A stretch of DNA of 64,000 nt from a virus (IMGVR_UViG_3300045988_114753), one strand, 5' to 3'; positions 1-30,103 are shown, counted from the stretch's first letter. A program made the numbers and translations. The notes: generated from the sequence alone by a model not told the origin.

Positions 1-466
1 TAGGGTCTTTCTCTCTACGTTCTTTAGCAACCTCCTTTTCAGCCTTTCCAGTATAATCAGTAAAGACAACATACATTTTATCAAATATATCTTTTGTCTT
101 AGCAATAACTTGTACAATATTATCTGGTATATCTCTAGGATAATTTTCCAATTCAATAATTTTAACTACATTTTTAGAAATGTTATCAATATAATCTTCA
201 ATATCATCTCTATACACAAATGAATTAATACCTAAACCAACTACTTGCATCTCTTTTTCAATGTTGTCTGCTAAAAATCTTAACTTTTCAATAACACGCT
301 TTTGACCAGTTATGCTATATTTTTCTACTAATAGTAAATAACCATTATAAAGGTCTTTTAAATCTTTGTCTGTTACTGTTTGTTTCTTTTCTTTTAAATA
401 ATTAAAATATTGAGTAGCATTTAGTTCTTCAACGTTGACTTCGGTTATCTTCTTTTTGCTTGTCAT
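1..466 (-). CDS. hypothetical protein, N-terminal part only (C-terminus runs off the left window edge)
   Basis: Open - strand frame from ATG at 466 to the window edge. ATGA overlap (463-466) with the stop of the radical SAM gene suggests translational coupling. Confidence 0.6.
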   Translation of the reverse strand, partial: MTSKKKITEVNVEELNATQYFNYLKEKKQTVTDKDLKDLYNGYLLLVEKYSITGQKRVIEKLRFLADNIEKEMQVVGLGINSFVYRDDIEDYIDNISKNVVKIIELENYPRDIPDNIVQVIAKTKDIFDKMYVVFTDYTGKAEKEVAKERREKDP

Positions 467-1359
467 TTATTTTCACTTCCTTTTATTATTTTGAACATAT
501 CATCAATATTGCTTAATAGTGGATAACGTTCAACGGATGTAGATGTCTTTGCAAATTGTTTGTTTACTAAATCAACATACATCGTATGTGTGCCGTCATC
601 CCCTTGATAAAACTTATTCCATTGCTCATCTGTTAATACATCTTTAACAGCTAATTGTTCTATCGCTAAGTTATCAAATGATATAACTTTAAATTTCCCC
701 ATTAAACTAGATAAATTATTTTTTAACCAATCTATTTGTACTTGGATGATTGCACTCGCTTTTTCTAGTAAATCGTGTCCTCGTCCAAAGTCTTTATACC
801 CTAATATTAATATTTTTACACCTTTATTTGCGAAATAATCAAACACATCTCCACCGTGAATACCAGCAATAAGATGAACCACTAAATTTGGATTATTTTT
901 TATTGCATTATCCCAAAATTCGTCATCAAATGATGTGAATGAGACACCTAAACCATAAATTAATTTTTCATTTACCAATTTGTTAATTAATTCTAAATGT
1001 CCTTTAAACTCTTTTTGATTGACCGTAATACTAGGTATGACACCTCTTGCCTTTAATTTTTCTAAAAAAGGAATAAGGTCTGGATGACCTGTAACAGCTC
1101 CTCCACCTATTGCCATCTCAGTTCCAGGGCGAAGTTTGTCTATAAATTCAGCATTCATAATATCTCCGTGTTTGCCATCTGGTGTTGATTTTTCGTGACA
1201 CATAGGACATCCAAAAGGACATCTATTAGTGATTTTGCAGTCCATTGACTCTGGGTAATCTGCCTCAAAAAAATCTAAATCATTTTCTCTAATTTTAGTC
1301 CCATCATCAAATATTGTTACAAAATAATTTCCATTTTTATAATGTGCTAATTGTTTCAT
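463..1359 (-). CDS. radical SAM domain protein
   Basis: CxxxCxxC cluster NRC-PFG-C-PM-C (Cys47/51/54), followed by a glycine-rich IGGGAVTGHP motif. No C-terminal SPASM-like Cys cluster. Confidence 0.7.
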   Translation of the reverse strand: MKQLAHYKNGNYFVTIFDDGTKIRENDLDFFEADYPESMDCKITNRCPFGCPMCHEKSTPDGKHGDIMNAEFIDKLRPGTEMAIGGGAVTGHPDLIPFLEKLKARGVIPSITVNQKEFKGHLELINKLVNEKLIYGLGVSFTSFDDEFWDNAIKNNPNLVVHLIAGIHGGDVFDYFANKGVKILILGYKDFGRGHDLLEKASAIIQVQIDWLKNNLSSLMGKFKVISFDNLAIEQLAVKDVLTDEQWNKFYQGDDGTHTMYVDLVNKQFAKTSTSVERYPLLSNIDDMFKIIKGSENK

Positions 1360-1377
1360 TTTTATCCCTCCTTATTC

Positions 1378-1746
1378 TTAATAGTCTTGTCCGTAATAAC
1401 CAAAGGCAACTACAGTATCTCCATTTGGTGTATTATATTTATCGACATATGTTTCGTATTCTATATAATCATAGTCGTTAAACTCCTCGTATGTATAATA
1501 TGTCTTATCATCATCATTTAGATATTCTTCAAGTTTATCCTTAAAATCTGGGTCTTCTTTACTAACTCCTGTATTTTCTTTTAGAAATTCCTCTTCCACC
1601 GTTTCTTTAGAAACCAATTCATCATTCCATCTATTCCAATACATCTCACCATTTTTCCATTTTAAGAAATCACTCTCCATACACATTGTTATTGAATGTG
1701 TACTACTACTATTTGTTTCAAATGTTCCTATTCTTATTGTTCTCAT
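1378..1746 (-). CDS. FETNSSSTH-motif family protein, paralog 1 (short form)
   Basis: N-terminus MRTIRIGTFETNSSSTHS is shared with five neighbouring ORFs. The acidic C-terminal part is unrelated to them. Confidence 0.8.
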   Translation of the reverse strand: MRTIRIGTFETNSSSTHSITMCMESDFLKWKNGEMYWNRWNDELVSKETVEEEFLKENTGVSKEDPDFKDKLEEYLNDDDKTYYTYEEFNDYDYIEYETYVDKYNTPNGDTVVAFGYYGQDY

Positions 1747-1747
1747 A

Positions 1748-2107
1748 TTACCACCTATCTCCTCTATAAATACTCATAATAACATTATTACCTAGTTCTT
1801 TTTGCTCTACTTCCGCAAAACTCTCGACATACTCTGCCGATGCGTTATCGTCATCAATTACATAACAATAATCGCTTTCCATAAAACTATATTCGCTTTC
1901 AAAGTGTTGTCCGTCATAATCAACAGACCCATCTTCGTTTCTTACAATTTTTTTATCTTCATCGGTTAAGTCTTGCACTTGCCCAGAATGAAGGTTTAAT
2001 GTCTTTTTATTATTTTGCCACGCTTTATAATCTTCTTTTGATAGAATTACTAATGCGTGAGTACTACTAGAATTAGTCTCAAATGTGCCATATCTTATTG
2101 TCTTCAT
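1748..2107 (-). CDS. FETNSSSTH-motif family protein, paralog 2 (short form)
   Basis: N-terminus MKTIRYGTFETNSSSTHA. Only 1 nt separates it from the next gene. Confidence 0.8.
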   Translation of the reverse strand: MKTIRYGTFETNSSSTHALVILSKEDYKAWQNNKKTLNLHSGQVQDLTDEDKKIVRNEDGSVDYDGQHFESEYSFMESDYCYVIDDDNASAEYVESFAEVEQKELGNNVIMSIYRGDRW

Positions 2108-2109
2108 TA

Positions 2110-2619
2110 TTAATCCCTCCCAAACTCTATAACGGTATCTTCTCTTAATACTTCGTCTAATAAATTACGGTCGTGATTTACCAAATCTTCTAGTAACTCA
2201 TCTAAATTAGAACATATTATTTGGTGATTAATATTTACTATATCTTCTAAATCACTATATGTGTCACCATCTTCATCAGTCCATCTGTTAATTTTATATT
2301 CTTTTGGTAACACTACTTTCTTTCCATACCTTGACATCACGAAATCAGCAATTCGCTTAAAATCAAATGACTTTTCCACTTGTTCTTTTAGGTCGTCATA
2401 ATCATATACATCCCATTTGTATCTATTTATAATTTGTGATACCAAATATGATACTTTTTCTTTTAGAGTAGATAAAACTCTACAATCGTCAGTATCTATA
2501 AACTCTACAACTAATGTATCGCTAGGTGATAAATAATCACTATGGTCTCCTTTGGTAACACTAAGTGCGTGTGTACTGCTACTATTTGTTTCAAAAATTC
2601 TATTTCTAATTATTTTCAT
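2110..2619 (-). CDS. FETNSSSTH-motif family protein, paralog 3
   Basis: N-terminus MKIIRNRIFETNSSSTHA. Second shared motif LKEKVSY. GGAGG lies 9 nt upstream of the ATG. Confidence 0.8.
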   Translation of the reverse strand: MKIIRNRIFETNSSSTHALSVTKGDHSDYLSPSDTLVVEFIDTDDCRVLSTLKEKVSYLVSQIINRYKWDVYDYDDLKEQVEKSFDFKRIADFVMSRYGKKVVLPKEYKINRWTDEDGDTYSDLEDIVNINHQIICSNLDELLEDLVNHDRNLLDEVLREDTVIEFGRD

Positions 2620-2806
2620 TTTCTGATGCCTCCTTAAAATTATTTTTTATATATTCTTCTGGGGTTATATCCTCATCTGCATTCATTTCATCTGGTTCAT
2701 AGTAACCCTCCCAGTTATCTACACCATTGTTTATAAGTCTAGTTAACTCCCAACTGTCTTCAATTAATTGCTTTAAACTTTTTTCGCTTATTATATAACT
2801 TTTCAT
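2606..2806 (-). CDS. hypothetical acidic protein
   Basis: 66 aa ORF from the track, embedded in the paralog array. Overlaps the downstream gene by 14 nt. Confidence 0.6.
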   Translation of the reverse strand: MKSYIISEKSLKQLIEDSWELTRLINNGVDNWEGYYEPDEMNADEDITPEEYIKNNFKEASENENN

Positions 2807-2809
2807 ATT

Positions 2810-3595
2810 TTAATTTCCTTTCAAATAAACATCGTTATTTTTTTCGTACTCTTTTAATTTCTTCCAGAAATCACTATTGTCATACGGATACTCTTTACAA
2901 TATCTATCCCAATACTCATCTTTTATATGACCGTCTTTATCAAACCAATCTGCTGGTGGCTTTTCCCAATCTTCATTCACACAACATCCCTCACTGTCGT
3001 AGTCATATTCAAAGCCAATAGTTTTTATGTTATAGCCCCTAAACTCATCACCACCAATTGTTATATAACTATCTCTATTAAAAATAAATCTTTTAACAAA
3101 TTCGTCATCAGTTTTTAATCTTGCAACAAAGTCTGTACCGTCTAAACCATTTGCGTGGTCTATGTAATTTCCATATCTTTCCTTTAGTATTAAACAAGTA
3201 TCACTGCCAGTTAAATCCCCATCGTCGCCCTTTCTGTCGATGTAGTTAAATACATCTTGTGGTGTAGGATTATATCTTTTATTAGTTTCTAATTGTTTCC
3301 ATATTGCAATCACTCGCTTTTTAAAGTCGTCAATTTCGTCTTTATTTGTAGCATCTTGTGGTTTCCAATTATCGTCATAATGCGACCATTCATAATTATT
3401 TATCAACATCATATAAGCATACGCTAATTTTTCGTCCCAATTATCACACAAACGGCATTCTTCTCTGCCAAACGCATAATCGTGGTCTAAACTATCATAC
3501 AAGTCATATTCCTCATTATTAGCTTGTTTAGGCACCACAATTGCGTGTGTACTTGAACTATTAGTTTCAAAACTTCCATATCTAATCGTTTTCAT
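2810..3595 (-). CDS. FETNSSSTH-motif family protein, paralog 4 (longest, 261 aa)
   Basis: N-terminus MKTIRYGSFETNSSSTHA. Also carries the motifs DEKLAYAYMM, YIDHANG and ITIGGDEF. Confidence 0.8.
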   Translation of the reverse strand: MKTIRYGSFETNSSSTHAIVVPKQANNEEYDLYDSLDHDYAFGREECRLCDNWDEKLAYAYMMLINNYEWSHYDDNWKPQDATNKDEIDDFKKRVIAIWKQLETNKRYNPTPQDVFNYIDRKGDDGDLTGSDTCLILKERYGNYIDHANGLDGTDFVARLKTDDEFVKRFIFNRDSYITIGGDEFRGYNIKTIGFEYDYDSEGCCVNEDWEKPPADWFDKDGHIKDEYWDRYCKEYPYDNSDFWKKLKEYEKNNDVYLKGN

Positions 3596-3606
3596 CTGTT
3601 ACACAC

Positions 3607-4179
3607 CTATCTTTCCATTCCATAAGGGCATACTTCGTTATTGATAAATACATCTTTGTCAAAAATTATTTCTTTTATCTTGTTTTTGAATTTTTCTTTG
3701 TCTGACACTTGTAATAAATCTTTAATTCCAATACACTCATCATAAGTTGTTTCGTAAAATGGAAACCAATCATTTTCTGGTCGGACATAATCTATCATAG
3801 TGCCAGTTTCTTCTAATACTGCCTCTTGTAACCAAACAAACAAATCTGTTTTTATCATTTTTTCAAATACTTCCTCGTTGTAACCCTTTTCATTTCTTCT
3901 ATCATAATCCCACATATCGTCGTGTGTATCCTCAACAACACTAGCAATCATATTGATTATAAAACTTAATTTTTCTGTTTCGGTACGAAGTGTATCACAA
4001 GCATATTCTTCGTCGCCACCTCCACAATCTCCATATTCTACTACACTCAATAACTTTCCAGTATCTCTAGTTAAATTTCTAGGTATATCATCTTCTCTAG
4101 GTTTTTGATATTTTGAAATTGTAATGCTATGTGTACTACTAGAATTTGTTTCAAAAGTTCCGTATCTAATTGTTTTCAT
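3607..4179 (-). CDS. FETNSSSTH-motif family protein, paralog 5
   Basis: N-terminus MKTIRYGTFETNSSSTHS. Second shared motif TEKLSFIINM. Confidence 0.8.
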   Translation of the reverse strand: MKTIRYGTFETNSSSTHSITISKYQKPREDDIPRNLTRDTGKLLSVVEYGDCGGGDEEYACDTLRTETEKLSFIINMIASVVEDTHDDMWDYDRRNEKGYNEEVFEKMIKTDLFVWLQEAVLEETGTMIDYVRPENDWFPFYETTYDECIGIKDLLQVSDKEKFKNKIKEIIFDKDVFINNEVCPYGMER

Positions 4180-4185
4180 TATTTA

Positions 4186-4416
4186 TCACTCTCCTATTTT
4201 AAAACTAACTTTTTCTACTATTTCACTAAGATAAACAAACCAAGTACCCTCTTTATAATATTCTCTGTTATAACCATATTCATCGTCATGTTTACCTTTA
4301 TATTGCTTATCAATTAAATACACCTTATTTAAAGATATTGGTTCATTTTTTATATCAACTATTGTTGCAATAGTTCCATTAATCAATCTAACTCTATCTT
4401 TAATCTTTAATATCAT
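4186..4416 (-). CDS. hypothetical protein
   Basis: 76 aa ORF from the track in the - strand operon. No motif recognised. Confidence 0.65.
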   Translation of the reverse strand: MILKIKDRVRLINGTIATIVDIKNEPISLNKVYLIDKQYKGKHDDEYGYNREYYKEGTWFVYLSEIVEKVSFKIGE

Positions 4417-4726
4417 TTATACCTCTTTCTAGTTCTAACATTTTATCTAAAATTGCAACGAACCATTCGGTATCTATAAACACATCTTCTGGTATTTCAG
4501 TTTTAATATATTTTTTTAACTCAGCCCAATTATCTTTTAGTTGTTTATTTTCTTGTTGTAATTGTTCAAATTTTTCTTCATCATTTAGCCAATGACTAAT
4601 TTTGGTTTTACCATCAGTGTAAATACCTTTAATATTACCATTATCACTCTTATAAGTATATAGTAATCTAAAACTATTTTTAACCAAATGCCAGTCATTA
4701 CCCTGTAATCTTTGAAATTTTTCCAT
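4400..4726 (-). CDS. hypothetical protein
   Basis: 108 aa ORF from the track. Overlaps the downstream gene by 17 nt. Confidence 0.7.
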   Translation of the reverse strand: MEKFQRLQGNDWHLVKNSFRLLYTYKSDNGNIKGIYTDGKTKISHWLNDEEKFEQLQQENKQLKDNWAELKKYIKTEIPEDVFIDTEWFVAILDKMLELERGINDIKD

Positions 4727-4747
4727 TATCTACACCATTTCTTTCCG

Positions 4748-5176
4748 TTAATTTTGTTGTTCTTGTAACATTTCAATCTCTTGATTTAATTCTTTTATTT
4801 TATCTTTTAGTCTAGCAATTTCTAATTCCATTGCTCCACCATCTAACCAATGATGTAAATACCCCTCATCAAATTCTCTTTTGTCTATTATCGATTGTCC
4901 AAACAAATCACAGGCACTAGATAATAATCGTTGTAACCTACAAGCTTGTTCTTGATTAAGTTTGCTATATTCTTTGTCTTTATATATTTTACTACACAAA
5001 TCTTCGCCATAATAGCAAACCATATCATAACTGATTTCTCTAATCATTTTTAATACTTCTTGTAGTGTTAAGGTGCTAATAACATATTCTAATACCTTAT
5101 TCATTCTATCTAAATTTAATTCTTTTGCGTAAAAATCTTTACGAGGTTGTATGTCTTTTGTAATTTCATTATCCAT
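4748..5176 (-). CDS. hypothetical protein with C-terminal coiled coil
   Basis: ORF track gives 4748-5188. The ATG at 5176 sits 8 nt after GGGTGG and is preferred over the GTG at 5188. Confidence 0.7.
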   Translation of the reverse strand: MDNEITKDIQPRKDFYAKELNLDRMNKVLEYVISTLTLQEVLKMIREISYDMVCYYGEDLCSKIYKDKEYSKLNQEQACRLQRLLSSACDLFGQSIIDKREFDEGYLHHWLDGGAMELEIARLKDKIKELNQEIEMLQEQQN

Positions 5177-5603
5177 TATCATTTCCACCCTCTATATAAG
5201 AACTATCACTTAGTAGAAAAGTTAATAATGTATCGTCGTCTTTATATATTTCTTCTATTTCTTCTTGATACCAATCTTCGTGGTCTACATAACCATTTCT
5301 ATATTCTTCATAAGTAGGCAATTCAAAATCAATTCCTAGATTATGCAATCTTTCTTGAATTGGTTTTATTTTGTCTTGCAAGTTCTTTTCATTAAAGTCA
5401 TAGCACACTAGACATCTAATCATATATGCCAACTTTTCTTCTATGGTGTCCCAAGTTTCAAATTGCCAACCAAATTCCCCGTACCAATCTGGGTTGACTG
5501 TTATAGGAAGAATATCATACTTCCCGTTCTTATTTTCGCCAACTGTTATGGAATGTGTAGAACTGCTATTGGTTTCAAATACATTATTTCTTATTTTTTT
5601 CAT
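5169..5603 (-). CDS. FETNSSSTH-motif family protein, paralog 6
   Basis: N-terminus MKKIRNNVFETNSSSTHS. Also carries motifs EEKLAYMIRC, YVDHEDW and IEGGNDNG. AAGGAG lies upstream. Confidence 0.8.
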   Translation of the reverse strand: MKKIRNNVFETNSSSTHSITVGENKNGKYDILPITVNPDWYGEFGWQFETWDTIEEKLAYMIRCLVCYDFNEKNLQDKIKPIQERLHNLGIDFELPTYEEYRNGYVDHEDWYQEEIEEIYKDDDTLLTFLLSDSSYIEGGNDNG

Positions 5604-6569: not shown

Positions 6570-7472
6570 CTAGTCTTCTTCTATATTTCTAAATGCGTCT
6601 TCATTTAACATAGCCATTTTTATTGCGTCCTCTTTAGAGTGAGAATAGTTATTTGTAGTAGCCATATTTGAATGCCCCGCCATATCTCTCACTACTTGTA
6701 TAGGTACTCCTTTATTAAGTTTTCCAGTAATAAAGCCGTGTCTTAATTTGTGTGGGGACATTTCGTCGCTCCAATACAAACCAATTCTACTAGCACAAGT
6801 TTTTAAACTTTTTGAAAAACTTTGCCTTGTCAAAACATTTCCCTCGTCGCCAATAAACAACAAGTCAGTCTTTACTCCAGTTCTTTCCACAATATGTTTC
6901 CTTTTATTGTTAATAAAATCTTTACATATTTTAGCACAAGATGGTGTAAACCATATAGTTCTTTCCTTTCCACCTTTACCCTCAACAACTGCAAAACCTC
7001 TTTCAATATCAGCACAATTAATTTGTATCATTTCTTTAAAACGAACTCCAGTGCATTGCATTACCGATATACCTGCCCTCACTCTTTCATTTGACGACAT
7101 TCTAATCATTTGCTCTGCTATATCTCCGTCTGCATATTTTCTTTCTTTATGTGGTGTCTTTGCAAGAGGTATATTTCCAATTTTTCTATCAACTAATATA
7201 TCTTTTTCAGTTTCAAGATATGAATAAATTTGTTTTATTGCACTTAATTTATTATTTCTAGTAGACGGCTCGTTTCCTTTATCTACTTGTTTAGAAAGCC
7301 AGTCTTTGATAATTTGTGCGTTTACATTTATGAAAGTTTTATAATCTTTAATATTCATTTCTTCACAAAATTCTTTAATATGATTGATATATAAGTCTAC
7401 ACTATTACTATTTCTACCCTCAATGTCAACCTTGTAAGTTTTAAATTCTTTTAGTAAAATTTCCATATTCAT
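6570..7472 (-). CDS. tyrosine recombinase / integrase (XerC/D-like)
   Basis: C-terminal catalytic signature: TGVRFKE (Arg), HKLRHGF (H-x-x-R), GHSNMATTNNYSH (His and Tyr). Start moved to the ATG at 7472, downstream of GGAGG; the track start is 7499. Confidence 0.8.
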   Translation of the reverse strand: MNMEILLKEFKTYKVDIEGRNSNSVDLYINHIKEFCEEMNIKDYKTFINVNAQIIKDWLSKQVDKGNEPSTRNNKLSAIKQIYSYLETEKDILVDRKIGNIPLAKTPHKERKYADGDIAEQMIRMSSNERVRAGISVMQCTGVRFKEMIQINCADIERGFAVVEGKGGKERTIWFTPSCAKICKDFINNKRKHIVERTGVKTDLLFIGDEGNVLTRQSFSKSLKTCASRIGLYWSDEMSPHKLRHGFITGKLNKGVPIQVVRDMAGHSNMATTNNYSHSKEDAIKMAMLNEDAFRNIEED

Positions 7473-7520
7473 ATTTATTTCACCTCCCTCTATCTTCATT
7501 AATAGAATACTATATTTTTA

Positions 7521-7826
7521 TTACTTTGTCAAGTTATATTTGCCAATTTTCTCTAAATCTAATTGATATAGGGGATAAATGCAAAAACCACTAGCCTTGT
7601 ATTCTCCCGTTGGTAGCCCAAAATCATTGTCTACTAAAAAGTCTTCAGCCCAAGAACAATTATTGGTGTCAATATAAGCCATATTTTTTTCCAATAAGTC
7701 CCCAAGGTTGACTGTTATAATAGCCAATGGTGTACCGTCTTCGCATACTAATTCTAGTGCCGTGTTATTATTTGAATAACTCCTTATATTCATTTCTTTA
7801 ATATTATAATTTTTTACTCTTAACAT
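7521..7826 (-). CDS. hypothetical protein
   Basis: 101 aa ORF from the track. Confidence 0.7.
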   Translation of the reverse strand: MLRVKNYNIKEMNIRSYSNNNTALELVCEDGTPLAIITVNLGDLLEKNMAYIDTNNCSWAEDFLVDNDFGLPTGEYKASGFCIYPLYQLDLEKIGKYNLTK

Positions 7827-27847: not shown

Positions 27848-28096
27848 TTATAATACCTCCAATTTTTTATAATTATATTTTACACCATTTATTAATTCAT
27901 AGGCTAGTCGCTCGTTAATAATTGTATAATCATATTGTAAAGTTTTAATCATATCTCTAATACATAATGAGTTATTAATGATAAGATTAATATCGTCATA
28001 CAACCCAGTTGTTATATAAAGTTTTTTCTTCTTTTCACTATAATACCAATTAAGATTATTTTCTAGCATATAATTTTTTATTTCTTCTTTATTCAT
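27848..28096 (-). CDS. hypothetical protein
   Basis: 82 aa ORF, the first gene of the - strand block after the tandem promoter repeats. Confidence 0.7.
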   Translation of the reverse strand: MNKEEIKNYMLENNLNWYYSEKKKKLYITTGLYDDINLIINNSLCIRDMIKTLQYDYTIINERLAYELINGVKYNYKKLEVL

Positions 28097-28107
28097 AGTA
28101 ATCTCTC

Positions 28108-28156
28108 CTCTTTACACTTATATTATACCATAACTTTTTTAAACTAGGGAAGTAAA
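28108..28156 (-). promoter_or_regulatory. phage promoter repeat, copy A
   Basis: - strand reads TTTACTTCCCTAG-N13-TGGTATAAT-ATAAGTGTAAAGAGGAGAG. Confidence 0.6.
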
Positions 28157-28210
28157 TTGTATTTTTTACAACTTTTTTTTGCAACTTTTTGCACTCTCTA
28201 GTTGTATTAT

Positions 28211-28260
28211 TCCCTTTGTTAATTATATTATACCACAAGTTTTGCGAAGTAGGGAAGTAA
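28211..28260 (-). promoter_or_regulatory. phage promoter repeat, copy B
   Basis: - strand reads TTTACTTCCCTAC-N13-TGGTATAAT-ATAATTAACAAAGGG. No ORF lies before copy A, so it acts as a tandem promoter. Confidence 0.55.
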
Positions 28261-28270
28261 ATTGACTTTT

Positions 28271-28413
28271 CCCCGTTCTTTTTTGTTCGCCGTGTTATAT
28301 GTTCGCCCCGTTCTTCCTCGGCTCGGCTGTTATAGATAGACTTCTACACCTCGCCCCGTGTTAGGAATACACCCGAACACTTGTTCGCACGAACACCCGT
28401 TCGCCTTGTTCGC
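28271..28413. repeat. GC-rich iteron cluster (TGTTCGC / GCGAACA units plus CCCCGTTCTT direct repeat)
   Basis: TGTTCGC occurs at 28284, 28300, 28382 and 28407. CGTTCGC occurs at 28398. Inverted CGAACA occurs at 28374 and 28390, giving interlocking palindromes CGAACActTGTTCG and TGTTCGcaCGAACA. CCCCGTTCTT occurs at 28271 and 28307. Confidence 0.7.
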
Positions 28414-28464
28414 TTTTAGTATCATATCATTATTATTATATACTATTTTTATTTTAATATACAT
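28330..28464 (-). CDS. possible 44 aa protein overlapping the iteron cluster
   Basis: Not in the track. GGAGGTG lies 8 nt upstream of the ATG at 28464, just downstream of promoter repeat C. Coding status is uncertain because the sequence is dominated by DNA repeats. Confidence 0.35.
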   Translation of the reverse strand: MYIKIKIVYNNNDMILKANKANGCSCEQVFGCIPNTGRGVEVYL

Positions 28465-28482
28465 TTTTTTGACACCTCCTAA

Positions 28483-28530
28483 AAGTTACAATATAATTAT
28501 ATCATAAGTTTAGAAAAGCAGGGAAGTAAA
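28483..28530 (-). promoter_or_regulatory. phage promoter repeat, copy C
   Basis: - strand reads TTTACTTCCCTGC-N13-TGATATAAT-TATATTGTAACTTTTAGGAGG. Confidence 0.55.
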
Positions 28531-28619
28531 GGGGGCTTTTTTATTCCTATATAATAAGGAAAAGGAAAAGGCTTTTTTTGTAAAATTGTAAACTTTTTTA
28601 ATAAATTGTAAAAAAGGGG

Positions 28620-28648
28620 TTGTAATTTACTTTTTTTAGTGGTATAAT
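28620..28648 (+). promoter_or_regulatory. sigma-A type promoter (TTGTAA-17-TATAAT, extended -10 TGg)
   Basis: TTGTAA at 28620-28625, 17 nt spacer, TGGTATAAT ending at 28648. Preceded by three more TTGTAAA repeats (28578, 28586, 28607). Divergent from the - strand repeats. Confidence 0.6.
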
Positions 28649-28699
28649 TAAAGAGTAGTAAGGGAAAGACTACAAAAGAAAATAACGGAGGTGGAAAAA

Positions 28700-28921
28700 A
28701 TGAAAAAAAGAAAAGTCCTAAAAAATTATATATCATTTATATTATACTTTATTAATACGGCTTTAATAATGCTTGATATAATGCTATTAGCAGAGTTAAA
28801 CACTTGCATTTTATTTTATAGTATATCTATTAATATAGTGATTTTAAATACTTATATAATACATAATTTTAGCAGTAGGGCTTTTAATAATGAATATATG
28901 TATATATTCAAAGAGAATTAA
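28700..28921 (+). CDS. small hydrophobic membrane protein
   Basis: GGAGGTG lies upstream of the ATG at 28700 (the track starts at GTG 28691). Basic N-terminus followed by two hydrophobic stretches. Confidence 0.6.
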   Translation: MKKRKVLKNYISFILYFINTALIMLDIMLLAELNTCILFYSISINIVILNTYIIHNFSSRAFNNEYMYIFKEN

Positions 28922-28986
28922 AAGCAAGTATAAAAGAATAAAAACGGGGTAAAATAATAATAAGAAAATAAAGGAGATATAAAAAA

Positions 28987-29568
28987 ATGGAATTAAAAGA
29001 CATTAAAAGAATAATAGAAAATAAGGGGGAAACATTAACAAAGGAACTAAAAAAAGCAGAACTAAAAAGGGGTTATATGGTAAGTTTAGAGGGTACGGAA
29101 ACACAAACAAAAGGCGACGACTACCAAGCAATTATAAAAGCAATAGAGGAAAAACAAGCAATCATAAAAGATAAAAATAATATGTATATAGGTTTATGGC
29201 TTGATAGTAATATTATGTATATTGATATTAGTGTTAATATAATTGATAAGGTGGAGGCTTTAGAGTTTGGGAAGTATAACAAACAATTAGCAATTTACGA
29301 CCTAAAAAATAATGATAGTATATATTTAAAAGATTATAATTTTATAAAATATTATACATTATATGAAGTAATAAAAGATAGAAATAATAATATAATTGAT
29401 TATAAAATAAAAGAACAAAAAGAAAATATTAACCTATTTAAAAGCATAAAAGCGAGTGCTAAAACTTTATTAAATGCAACATATAATAGCATAGATAATA
29501 TAAAAAATGATAGTAGATTAATTAATAATAGATATATAATCATAAAAGATTATGATATAATTTTATAA
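28987..29568 (+). CDS. hypothetical protein
   Basis: 193 aa ORF. AAAGGAG lies upstream. Followed by a strong terminator. Confidence 0.75.
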   Translation: MELKDIKRIIENKGETLTKELKKAELKRGYMVSLEGTETQTKGDDYQAIIKAIEEKQAIIKDKNNMYIGLWLDSNIMYIDISVNIIDKVEALEFGKYNKQLAIYDLKNNDSIYLKDYNFIKYYTLYEVIKDRNNNIIDYKIKEQKENINLFKSIKASAKTLLNATYNSIDNIKNDSRLINNRYIIIKDYDIIL

Positions 29569-29585
29569 GATAATTCAAGAAAAAC

Positions 29586-29607
29586 GCCCTTTTAAGGGCT
29601 TTTTTTT
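29586..29607. terminator. bidirectional intrinsic terminator
   Basis: GCCCTT-tt-AAGGGC hairpin with T8 downstream on the + strand and a T5 run (GTTTTTC) downstream on the - strand. Confidence 0.75.
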
Positions 29608-29721
29608 GGTGCTTTTTTTGTTTTTAAGTATGCTTAAATATACATTTTAGCAATAAAACGGGGGTATTTTACAACGGAAAGCGAACAAGGGGCTTTTTTA
29701 TAATGTGTGCTGCTCTTTTCG

Positions 29722-29836
29722 CACATCCCCCTTAGCATTTCCCACCATCCCATCACCCACACATCCACTCCCCACACCTCACACACCATCTCCCATCTAT
29801 CACTCTCCATAATCCATCCTCACCACTTCAAACCCC
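29722..29836. repeat. strand-asymmetric C/A-rich tract (G/T-rich on - strand), essentially G-free on + strand
   Basis: One G in 115 nt of the + strand. Seven C3-5 runs and nine TCC (GGA on the - strand). No ORF. Confidence 0.8.
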
Positions 29837-29936
29837 GATAATACAAGGCTTCTCAGTTTTACCTCCTCTTTACACTCGTGGCGTACTGTCCGCACCCCTC
29901 CCCCTCGTTTACAATAATATAATTCCTAAACAAAAA

Positions 29937-29951
29937 AGAGGCATAGCCTCT
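29937..29951 (-). terminator. putative - strand intrinsic terminator
   Basis: - strand reads AGAGGC-tat-GCCTCT followed by TTTTTG. No T run follows on the + strand. Confidence 0.4.
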
Positions 29952-30103
29952 CTGTGACGAATACGGGCTCATCACGAGCTCTTAGTAACGTGGGCAGTAT
30001 AATTACCCTCTGAGCCTTATAAAACCTCATAAAACGGCTTAAAATGCCCTCTGTGAGGGTAGTGGCAGAATGTCGGGCGGAGGTTAGTAGTAACAGACTC
30101 TTT

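Follow-up and report, generated by a model that had tools for sequence, protein, structure and literature searches.

When a radical S-adenosylmethionine (rSAM) enzyme has a dedicated protein partner with an invariant short motif, this partner is usually its substrate, as in the glycyl-radical enzymes, the sulfatases, the precursors of ribosomally synthesized and post-translationally modified peptides (RiPPs), QhpC, and the lipoyl and diphthamide targets. In the glycyl-radical pairs (PflB/PflA, NrdD/NrdG, and GrcA), of which phage examples exist, a small single-cluster rSAM enzyme acts on a finger loop of the partner encoded next to it. The sulfatase system has one rSAM maturase, anSME, for many folded sulfatases, which share a short Ser/Cys motif near the N-terminus and have active-site residues elsewhere. 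The partners of the PqqD/MftB type, which are RiPP recognition element (RRE) domains, are small proteins encoded beside the rSAM enzyme or fused to it in either order. Here, we describe a locus in a 64,000-nucleotide stretch of viral DNA (IMGVR_UViG_3300045988_114753; the whole stretch is called the window below), in which an rSAM gene stands next to an array of six paralogues (p144, p190, p261, p169, p119, and p122) with a common start of ~20 residues, MKxIRxxxFETNSSSTH. The rSAM enzyme and the proteins bearing this N-terminal module are very probably the two parts of a new enzyme system, which would comprise a dedicated single-cluster rSAM enzyme and a set of clients sharing a module of ~25 residues. 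We propose, with a probability of roughly 0.45, that the N-terminal hairpin-loop is the site that the rSAM enzyme modifies on these clients.

The locus resembled each of the described systems in part. As in the rSAM peptide maturases with several precursors (SkfB, SuiB, EpeE/YydG, and the RiPPs with NHLP or Nif11 leaders), one rSAM gene was accompanied by genes that are conserved at the N-terminus and otherwise variable. However, RiPP precursors are usually shorter than ~100 aa and have an unstructured core, whereas the clients in the window have 119-261 aa and are predicted to be folded; moreover, the conserved segment is itself a polar loop, which stays invariant when it is fused to the rSAM enzyme. 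The sulfatase system shares the one-to-many pattern and has a counterpart to the further motifs of the longer clients. In contrast to it, the six copies contained no (C/S)-x-(P/A)-x-R motif and gave no sulfatase match in Pfam, the rSAM enzyme had no auxiliary Cys, and the partner fold was not alkaline-phosphatase-like according to Foldseek. The module is predicted to be a hairpin with an invariant loop at its tip and would in this respect be like the finger loop of the glycyl-radical pairs, but the loop is N-terminal and without Gly, and the glycyl-radical motif RVxG[FWY] was not found in any of the six copies. A glycyl-radical site at the invariant C-terminal Gly of the six copies was also considered and rejected, because this Gly was lost in fused homologues (IDNDN in P0401). 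The PqqD/MftB partners share the pattern of fusions; they differ in that neither a PqqD match nor a match to the winged-helix RRE fold was obtained here, and in the invariant polar loop and the up to seven paralogues. Thus, the locus does not belong to the classical RiPP systems, the glycyl-radical pairs, or the sulfatase-maturation systems. What it may have in common with them is one rSAM enzyme serving protein clients with an invariant short motif, and its reaction may be new.

Linkage of the rSAM gene and its clients

Co-occurrence with the rSAM gene in other genomes had been named beforehand, in a preliminary description of the window, as one of two observations on which the idea of a system would stand or fall; it was found at ~90% of the loci, in very different phages, and frequently in the form of fusions. 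An rSAM homologue lay beside family members in 211 of the 237 loci retrieved with the motif. When IMG/VR loci were ranked by p122, 76 of 80 contained an adjacent homologue of the window rSAM (E-values from 1e-60 to 1e-198), and the p122 orthologues were located directly upstream of the rSAM gene in 76 of 80; ranking by p144 gave an adjacent rSAM homologue in 74 of 80 loci. The corresponding number for GTDB, whose loci are mostly phage contigs binned into metagenome-assembled genomes (MAGs) plus a few isolates, was 61 of 77, and 49 of 56 where the flank was at least 2.5 kb. For 174 distinct rSAM sequences, the nearest client was on the same strand (173/173) at a median gap of 16 nt; the client preceded the rSAM gene in 139 cases and followed it in 34. 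Most loci had one (42 loci) or two (73 loci) clients, and three, four, five, six, and seven clients were found in 25, 22, 6, 4, and 1 loci, respectively, which places the six copies of the window at the high end of the range. The minimal unit consisted of one long form and the rSAM gene, and the commonest unit of a long form, a short form (both defined below), and the rSAM gene. The make-up of the array varied even among close relatives, which had four to six copies with differing members.

The reverse retrieval, which used the rSAM enzyme in deposited phage genomes, gave only four lineages, and the partner was present in 4/4. In the Lak megaphages (Lak-B7), four family genes were found directly downstream of the rSAM gene. 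In Microcystis phage Ma-LMM01, gp130 is a long form located two genes upstream of gp128, which is annotated as 'Fe-S oxidoreductase'. In Thermus phage phiYS40, gp162 (L252:2015-2968, 317 aa) lay directly upstream of gp161, a distant rSAM homologue; gp162 starts with MRRLKEVRLTSMTNSSSASM (...MTNSSSAS), a degenerate motif in which the His and the Phe-Glu were lost. Besides Lak megaphages, the cyanophage Ma-LMM01, and Salmonella phage Arash, the module was borne by many gut phages and by some bacteria.

Client and enzyme were also found in a single polypeptide. The first such fusion was a 560-aa open reading frame (ORF) in a Ruminiclostridium MAG, which joined a family member to an rSAM domain. 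Fusions of the same architecture made up at least 57 clusters (430-590 aa, 20-65% identity), in which the motif fell within residues 8-30 and CX3CX2C lay at ~190-350. The reverse order, with the motif internal at about residue 308, was seen in three clusters (P0399, P0402, and P0457). The fused N-terminal domain was of the long form (R-x-G-F-A-T-N-S-S-S-S-H-S...F-G-W...K-x-x-Y...I-D-H-Q-S...G-G-N-D-N). The loop residues T, N, S, S, and H (T-N-S-S-x-x-H) were invariant across the fusions, and Glu10 was mostly Ala. Pfam and NCBIfam similarity was confined to the rSAM half of the fusions, and none reached the family cut-off. One phage fusion was located next to rIIB. In Salmonella phage Arash, gp146c (L251:3491-4921, WGL32597.1), annotated as 'methyltransferase', consisted of a long-form domain (MYLTQIRYGFATNSSSSHS...GGNDN), which matched PHROG 28997 at 1.5e-5, and a radical SAM domain; an RNA ligase gene was found ~400 nt downstream. 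Another fusion, P0506 (L239:8001-9404), stood alone in a bacterial contig of 934 kb, with housekeeping surroundings (CAP-domain, thymidine kinase, and adenylate kinase genes) and no phage genes nearby.

Around the module, no conserved third gene was found in ~150 loci. Because the breadth of hosts was wide and no other synteny was shared, the linkage was taken as functional, and it is highly likely that the rSAM enzyme and the module-bearing proteins work together.

Some neighbours recurred in partial subsets of the loci. The most frequent was a kinase-HD protein (AAA_33 kinase plus HD-domain protein, 29 loci), a second small rSAM enzyme (243 aa, NFGCDCHCKYC) was found in 14 loci, and DNA methyltransferases occurred in subsets; RNA ligase, Thg1, and metallophosphoesterase were each seen in single loci (examples of neighbours are L104:14705-15436, L123:7772-8692, L247:2703-3734, and L248:2604-4406). 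The neighbours were primase and resolvase in Ma-LMM01, and DNA polymerase and RNA ligase in Arash. The recurrent neighbours may be RNA-repair genes, and the subset neighbours point to nucleic-acid metabolism.

The module, its bodies, and the enzyme

In the alignment of the six proteins, M1, I4, R5, F9, E10, T11, N12, S13, S14, S15, T16, and H17 were invariant. When all 64 kb were scanned in six frames, [hydrophobic]-E-T-N-S-S-S-T-H occurred only six times, each at the N-terminus of an ORF of the array. The serine codons of the motif varied between copies in the aligned DNA (AGT/AGC in some and TCT/TCA in others), and the regions upstream of the six copies were unrelated at the DNA level. This indicated that the identity of the motif was kept by selection on the protein, and recent duplication, a DNA repeat, or gene conversion was ruled out as its source on the same grounds. 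Over its ~25 residues, the module was laid out as an invariant polar loop (F-E/A-T-N-S-S-S-T/S-H) flanked by two beta-strands, K-x-I/V-R before it and S-I/L-T-I after it. When the profiles of short and long forms were compared with hhalign, only the first 28 columns aligned (probability 99.3), so the N-terminal ~25 residues represent a portable module on two unrelated bodies. Two ORFs, P0135 (288 aa) and P0173 (395 aa), contained two copies of the module, at residues 1 and ~166 and at residues 1 and ~250, respectively; they are either tandem two-client proteins or the result of read-through of adjacent genes.

The six paralogues had been described as diverging almost completely beyond the motif. 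This was right for the relation between two classes, for which hhalign gave no support of homology past the module, and too strong within each class, the members of which were detectably related in searches with the N-terminal residues removed. The long class comprised p144, p190, and p261, with p169 joined more weakly, and the short class comprised p122 and p119. After the module, the long forms had the motifs FGW, E-K-L-x-Y with an invariant Lys, [IV]-D-H, and a C-terminal G-G-N-D-N-like element. Two of these had already been picked out by eye in the window: the second motif (EKLAY/EKLSF/EKVSY) was real, with its Lys invariant in 66 long-form relatives, and the (D/N)-H element recurred family-wide as [IV]-D-H. 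The short forms had C-x-x-E-[DE]-Y-x-K-W-x-x-G-E and a C-terminal T-T-P-x-G-[DE]-x-[IV]-V-A-F-G-Y-Y-G-x-D. A small catalytic core with Ser, Thr, and His, as suggested earlier, is thus possible for the long forms and not for the short forms, which have no K, DH, or GxNDN. Three loci (L145:5073-5861, L144:368-1159, and L155:9229-10017) had long forms beside the rSAM gene with a C-terminal domain like Tad2 (Thoeris anti-defence 2, PF11195), at 25.6 bits against a cut-off of 25; two of the three carry an identical protein. This was the only Pfam domain seen in a scan of the larger family members.

The family contained 1,615 proteins at E <= 1e-3 in a word-indexed search. An exhaustive search, clustered at 50% identity, gave 3,976 representatives, and nearly all of these had 90-330 aa with the motif at ~9-17. 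The earlier failure to place FETNSSSTH in any known family was borne out by profile and structure searches, in which no characterised domain was matched. None of the six paralogues had a match in Pfam or NCBIfam even at E <= 1, a PADLOC scan of them gave nothing beyond chance, and a sequence search of the PDB with the family profiles A1 and A3 found no match. A tblastn search with p190 found no match in deposited phages, probably owing to low-complexity masking and divergence. The sole library family that holds these proteins was PHROG 28997 (function unknown), which matched all six: p144 was covered over its full length, and the four other than p144 and p261 were matched mainly via the module (8e-4 to 1.2e-2), which was the only part through which the short forms were captured. 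Literature searches on the motif and on phage radical SAM enzymes returned nothing relevant and no mention of the motif. Neither the partner family nor its predicted fold or motif has been described.

The radical SAM assignment of the gene beside the array, made earlier from its Cys triad, was confirmed by the presence of CPFGCPMC and by a PF04055 match of 4.2e-7 (30.7 bits, cut-off 29.5). The enzyme also matched phrog_16999 (9e-47), and at least 4,995 homologues were found. In an alignment of 38 diverse homologues, the three cluster Cys were the only invariant Cys, and a GGG-x-P stretch for SAM binding was conserved. A single CX3CX2C without auxiliary-cluster Cys indicated one Fe-S cluster. 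The N-terminal extension was only ~35 aa; a beta-hairpin at the N-terminus (YxNGNYxVxIxDDGTKIR) was conserved, specific to this rSAM family, and retained in the fusions. The enzyme had no auxiliary Cys of the SPASM/twitch type and no SPASM match in Pfam, and Pfam and NCBIfam scans gave no PqqD or RRE match in the rSAM enzyme, the clients, or the fusions. Its weak similarities in NCBIfam were mostly to peptide maturases and extended to viperin and MoaA; prokaryotic viperin (pVip) gave no full-length match, and only the N-terminal ~110 positions that bind the cluster were similar (E 0.0024 for the window rSAM).

Some alleles of the rSAM gene carried inteins (P0541, P0546, P0336, and P0461), and the window rSAM was an intein-free allele. 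P0541 equalled the window rSAM with a 351-aa LAGLIDADG intein immediately before Cys54 of CX3CX2C, P0336 had a mini-intein at the same site, and P0461 apparently had two inteins. The position of the intein marks the site before Cys54 as reliably conserved.

The AlphaFold (AF2) model of p144 had a predicted local distance difference test score (pLDDT) of 85 and a predicted template modelling score (pTM) of 0.81; the body scored 88-97 and residues 1-13 below 50. A Foldseek search with it found no match in the PDB (best E 1.9, TM < 0.25), and in BFVD it matched only a member of the family and what may be an rSAM fusion. The model of the fused protein P0401 (pLDDT 87.5, pTM 0.71) had a disordered linker at 195-211, and in it the module formed a hairpin of strands 2-6 and 18-22 (pLDDT 89 and 73) with the invariant loop between them. 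P0401 had Foldseek matches through its rSAM half only, with modest E-values and TM-scores: SkfB (2.6e-6), SuiB (2.4e-5), and EpeE (~1e-4), followed by BlsE and AprD4. By predicted fold, the closest relatives of the rSAM enzyme would thus be the peptide-modifying enzymes SkfB, SuiB, and EpeE.

The array in the window

Re-examination of the ORFs confirmed the six minus-strand genes and their first 18 residues as first described (Table 1), and also the acidity of the proteins (pI 4.2-4.6). The rSAM gene directly follows the array on the same strand, starting 18 nt past p122, and its ATGA coupling to the next ORF was verified. The protein p144 is the archetype of the family and has the same type of domain as the one fused to rSAM enzymes in other organisms; p261 has an additional C-terminal extension with the last residues YLKGN. 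The array had been regarded as one operon. The tight spacing (-20 to +21 nt) makes this reasonable, but the array is interrupted by four unrelated ORFs, and scans for promoters and terminators gave no support, with results no better than those for shuffled sequence.

Table 1. Positions and characteristics of the rSAM gene, the six paralogues, and other genes at the left end of the window.
Feature	Position	Strand	Length (aa)	Characteristics
ORF cut by left window edge	2-466	-		phrog_10081 'transposase' 3.8e-57
rSAM gene	463-1359	-	298	PF04055, phrog_16999, CX3CX2C (C47, C51, C54)
p122, short form	1378-1746	-	122	Module + short-class body, C-terminus TPNGDTVVAFGYYGQDY
p119, short form	1748-2107	-	119	Module + short-class body
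p169, long form	2110-2619	-	169	Module, EKVSY, NINH, C-terminal FGRD
Unrelated ORF in array	2606-2806	-	66	PF25708 5.4e-12; phrog_6234 'host RecBCD nuclease inhibitor' 7e-9
p261, long form	2810-3595	-	261	Module, EKLAY, YIDH, IGGDE; phrog_28997 1.1e-7
p190, long form	3607-4179	-	190	Module, EKLSF, C-terminal CPYGMER
Unrelated ORF in array	4186-4416			
Unrelated ORF in array	4400-4726			
Unrelated ORF in array	4748-5188			
p144, long form	5169-5603	-	144	Module, FGW, EKLAY, YVDH, GGNDN; phrog_28997 1.8e-10
Tyrosine recombinase/integrase	6570-7499	-		PF00589 5.7e-29
DUF4313 protein	7521-7826	-		

The smallest of the unrelated ORFs, nested in the array with a 14-nt overlap with the start of p169, belonged to the T7 gp5.9 RecBCD-inhibitor family. 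The transposase-like ORF at the left edge overlaps the stop of the rSAM gene (ATGA) and was not kept beside the module in other loci. Its DNA at 3-222 was the sole nucleotide similarity to deposited phages within the first 8 kb (79-82% to the C. difficile phages phiCD211, phiCDIF1296T, and AR1086-1). Upstream of the array block were the integrase and DUF4313 genes. The coding strand changed from minus, with small ORFs, at 1-28 kb to plus, with larger ORFs, at 29-64 kb, a divergent junction of two gene blocks; both the GC skew and the AT skew changed sign at ~28000-30000. Proteins of the window were found with identical sequences on up to 166 public contigs, of which the longest had ~114 kb, and the nearest binned relative was a Candidatus Coprovivens MAG; the phage is therefore a common one of the gut, with a size of ~114 kb.

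Possible roles of the module

The invariance of the loop in spite of covalent fusion indicated that it is more than a docking handle or a recognition leader; hence it is either acted on by the rSAM enzyme or part of its catalytic apparatus. If the loop is acted on, the hairpin would enter the open side of the rSAM barrel, and the 5'-deoxyadenosyl radical would abstract a hydrogen atom from a loop residue (Asn12, Ser13-15, Thr16, or His17), leading to a post-translational modification that the client would need for its function. A single rSAM enzyme would in this way mature all six paralogues of the phage. By analogy with sulfatases and anSME, the additional motifs of the long forms might surround the modified residue as an active site that belongs to the client itself. 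The lack of an auxiliary cluster and of any conserved non-cluster Cys makes formylglycine-type oxidation, crosslinks of the thioether/SPASM type, and Cys-dependent epimerisation less likely, and redox-neutral or radical-retaining outcomes are more likely than a sulfatase-type oxidation. Candidate outcomes would be a rearrangement, a fragmentation, an elimination, a stable protein radical, or the addition of part of SAM.

We favoured modification of the loop because one enzyme serves one to seven divergent clients, because the module is portable and the short and long forms share nothing else, and because motif-bearing protein partners of rSAM enzymes have a precedent as substrates. The predicted fold of the rSAM enzyme, nearest to peptide maturases, may be counted on the same side. 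Several points weigh against it. Fusions of an enzyme with its substrate are unusual, and repeated fusion in both orders is a classic signature of the subunits of one enzyme. The FGW, K..Y, [IV]DH, and GGNDN elements were kept over large distances, which looks like an active or ligand-binding site of the long forms' own. The loci were mostly retrieved through the motif, many of them come from one metagenome study, and some overlap, so that the percentages of linked loci overstate the number of independent observations. The gap in module pLDDT between the isolated p144 and the fused P0401 may stem from differing alignments.

The fusions in both orders and the long-form motifs fit better with a second explanation, the main rival, which we regard as a serious if tentative one: the module-bearing proteins would be subunits or adaptors of the rSAM enzyme and not its substrates. 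The hairpin would then close or complete the active site and give Ser or His for substrate binding or for a proton or hydrogen-atom relay; the variable body would bring the true substrate (another protein, an immune signalling molecule, or either a nucleotide or the end of a nucleic acid), and the six paralogues would be alternative specificity subunits of one catalytic core. The fusion of long forms to the rSAM enzyme in at least 57 clusters and also in the opposite order, and its occurrence as a stand-alone gene in the 934-kb bacterial contig and in Arash, are consistent with this. The residues that the long forms keep over large distances (R, T, N, S, S, H, K, Y, and D) are of the kind usually seen in catalytic sites or in sites that bind phosphate or nucleotides; in the fused model (pTM 0.71) the N-terminal hairpin is ordered, the rSAM core is weakly similar to the nucleotide-modifying viperin and MoaA, and the rare long forms with a Tad2-like domain would bring in a ligand sponge. 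However, the short forms, which lack all of the long-form motifs save the module, are most often next to the rSAM gene, and up to seven divergent paralogues of a single subunit would be unusual. Neither a ligand pocket nor a known binding fold was detected by Foldseek of p144 or by the PDB profile search. No rSAM enzyme is known in which a separate small protein contributes a loop to the active site.

The preliminary description had also suggested an arrangement reminiscent of RiPP loci, with the Ser/Thr-rich motif as a possible recognition or modification site of the rSAM enzyme. In a classical RiPP locus, the six ORFs would be precursors with a leader bound by the rSAM enzyme and a C-terminal core that is modified, cleaved, and released. 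The part of this idea that stood was its outline, namely several genes with a conserved start (the first ~28 residues) and a variable rest beside one rSAM gene, at one to seven clients per enzyme, and a predicted fold of that enzyme nearest to SkfB, SuiB, and EpeE. The part that failed was the precursor itself: the bodies of 95-240 aa are confidently folded in prediction (pLDDT 88-97), acidic, and not Cys-rich, and no part is more polar or more invariant than the 'leader', which is retained in the fusions. Neither the SPASM/twitch Cys of the maturase nor an RRE or PqqD match was present, and there was no protease, exporter, or other conserved third gene nearby. We consider a classical RiPP locus very unlikely.

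It is still less probable that the module has nothing to do with the rSAM enzyme and serves in targeting or processing, for instance in capsid targeting with cleavage by a prohead protease, and that the adjacency is mere synteny. The internal-protein loci of the T4 type do consist of tandem, fast-changing genes of which only the N-terminal ~20 residues are conserved, and the composition of the array did differ among close relatives. However, the two genes were adjacent across Lak megaphages, a cyanophage, gut phages, and contigs associated with the candidate phyla radiation that share nothing else; the module was fused to the rSAM enzyme, was sometimes internal (as in the three reverse-order clusters), and was found in a bacterial chromosome; and the invariance of the motif over ~4,000 clusters misfits a signal that co-evolves with the scaffold and protease of each phage.

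Least probable of all is that the paralogues act alone as a diverged hydrolase of a known fold: by inspection, a beta-strand followed by S-S-T-H resembles the start of metallophosphoesterases (the SDTH-like motif I) and GGNDN recalls the GNHD/GxND blocks of metallophosphoesterase or SGNH/GDSL folds, but the order of the motifs is unlike both folds, that of the metallophosphoesterases being DxH...GD...GNH[DE]...H...GHxH, the short forms have no later motifs, no Pfam (PF00149 and PF12850 included) or NCBIfam match at E <= 1 and no PDB profile match were obtained, and Foldseek of the confident p144 model found no PDB fold, so that membership in the metallophosphoesterases was rejected.

Returning to the loop as a modified site, the mature acidic clients might act early in infection, in the takeover of the host or in counter-defence. 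The other reading in the preliminary description, an effector or anti-defence family, pointed in the same direction. Three circumstantial points lean this way, namely the gp5.9-like inhibitor within the array, the acidity of the clients, and the Tad2-like fusions. In a fuller and rather doubtful form of the proposal, the FETNSSSTH hairpin would be the acceptor of a new modification or protein-derived cofactor installed by the rSAM enzyme (for example a stable radical or an altered Ser or His), which would arm diversifying phage proteins of counter-defence or takeover, and the same chemistry would occur in the single-chain enzymes of bacteria and of Arash.

Pairs of an rSAM enzyme and a dedicated protein partner have repeatedly revealed new chemistry, including glycyl radicals, formylglycine, and RiPP crosslinks. 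The family described here is a partner family of ~4,000 clusters, so far unannotated, whose predicted fold is novel and whose loop of eight residues is invariant. It is tied to its own rSAM clade, and the large phages that bear the module, among them Lak megaphages and the phage of a bloom-forming cyanobacterium, have hosts in at least four bacterial phyla. The gp146c protein of Arash offers a culturable system for genetics. Solving the reaction would give a function to thousands of 'hypothetical' phage genes, and it may bring to light a kind of phage counter-defence not seen before or a new post-translational modification.

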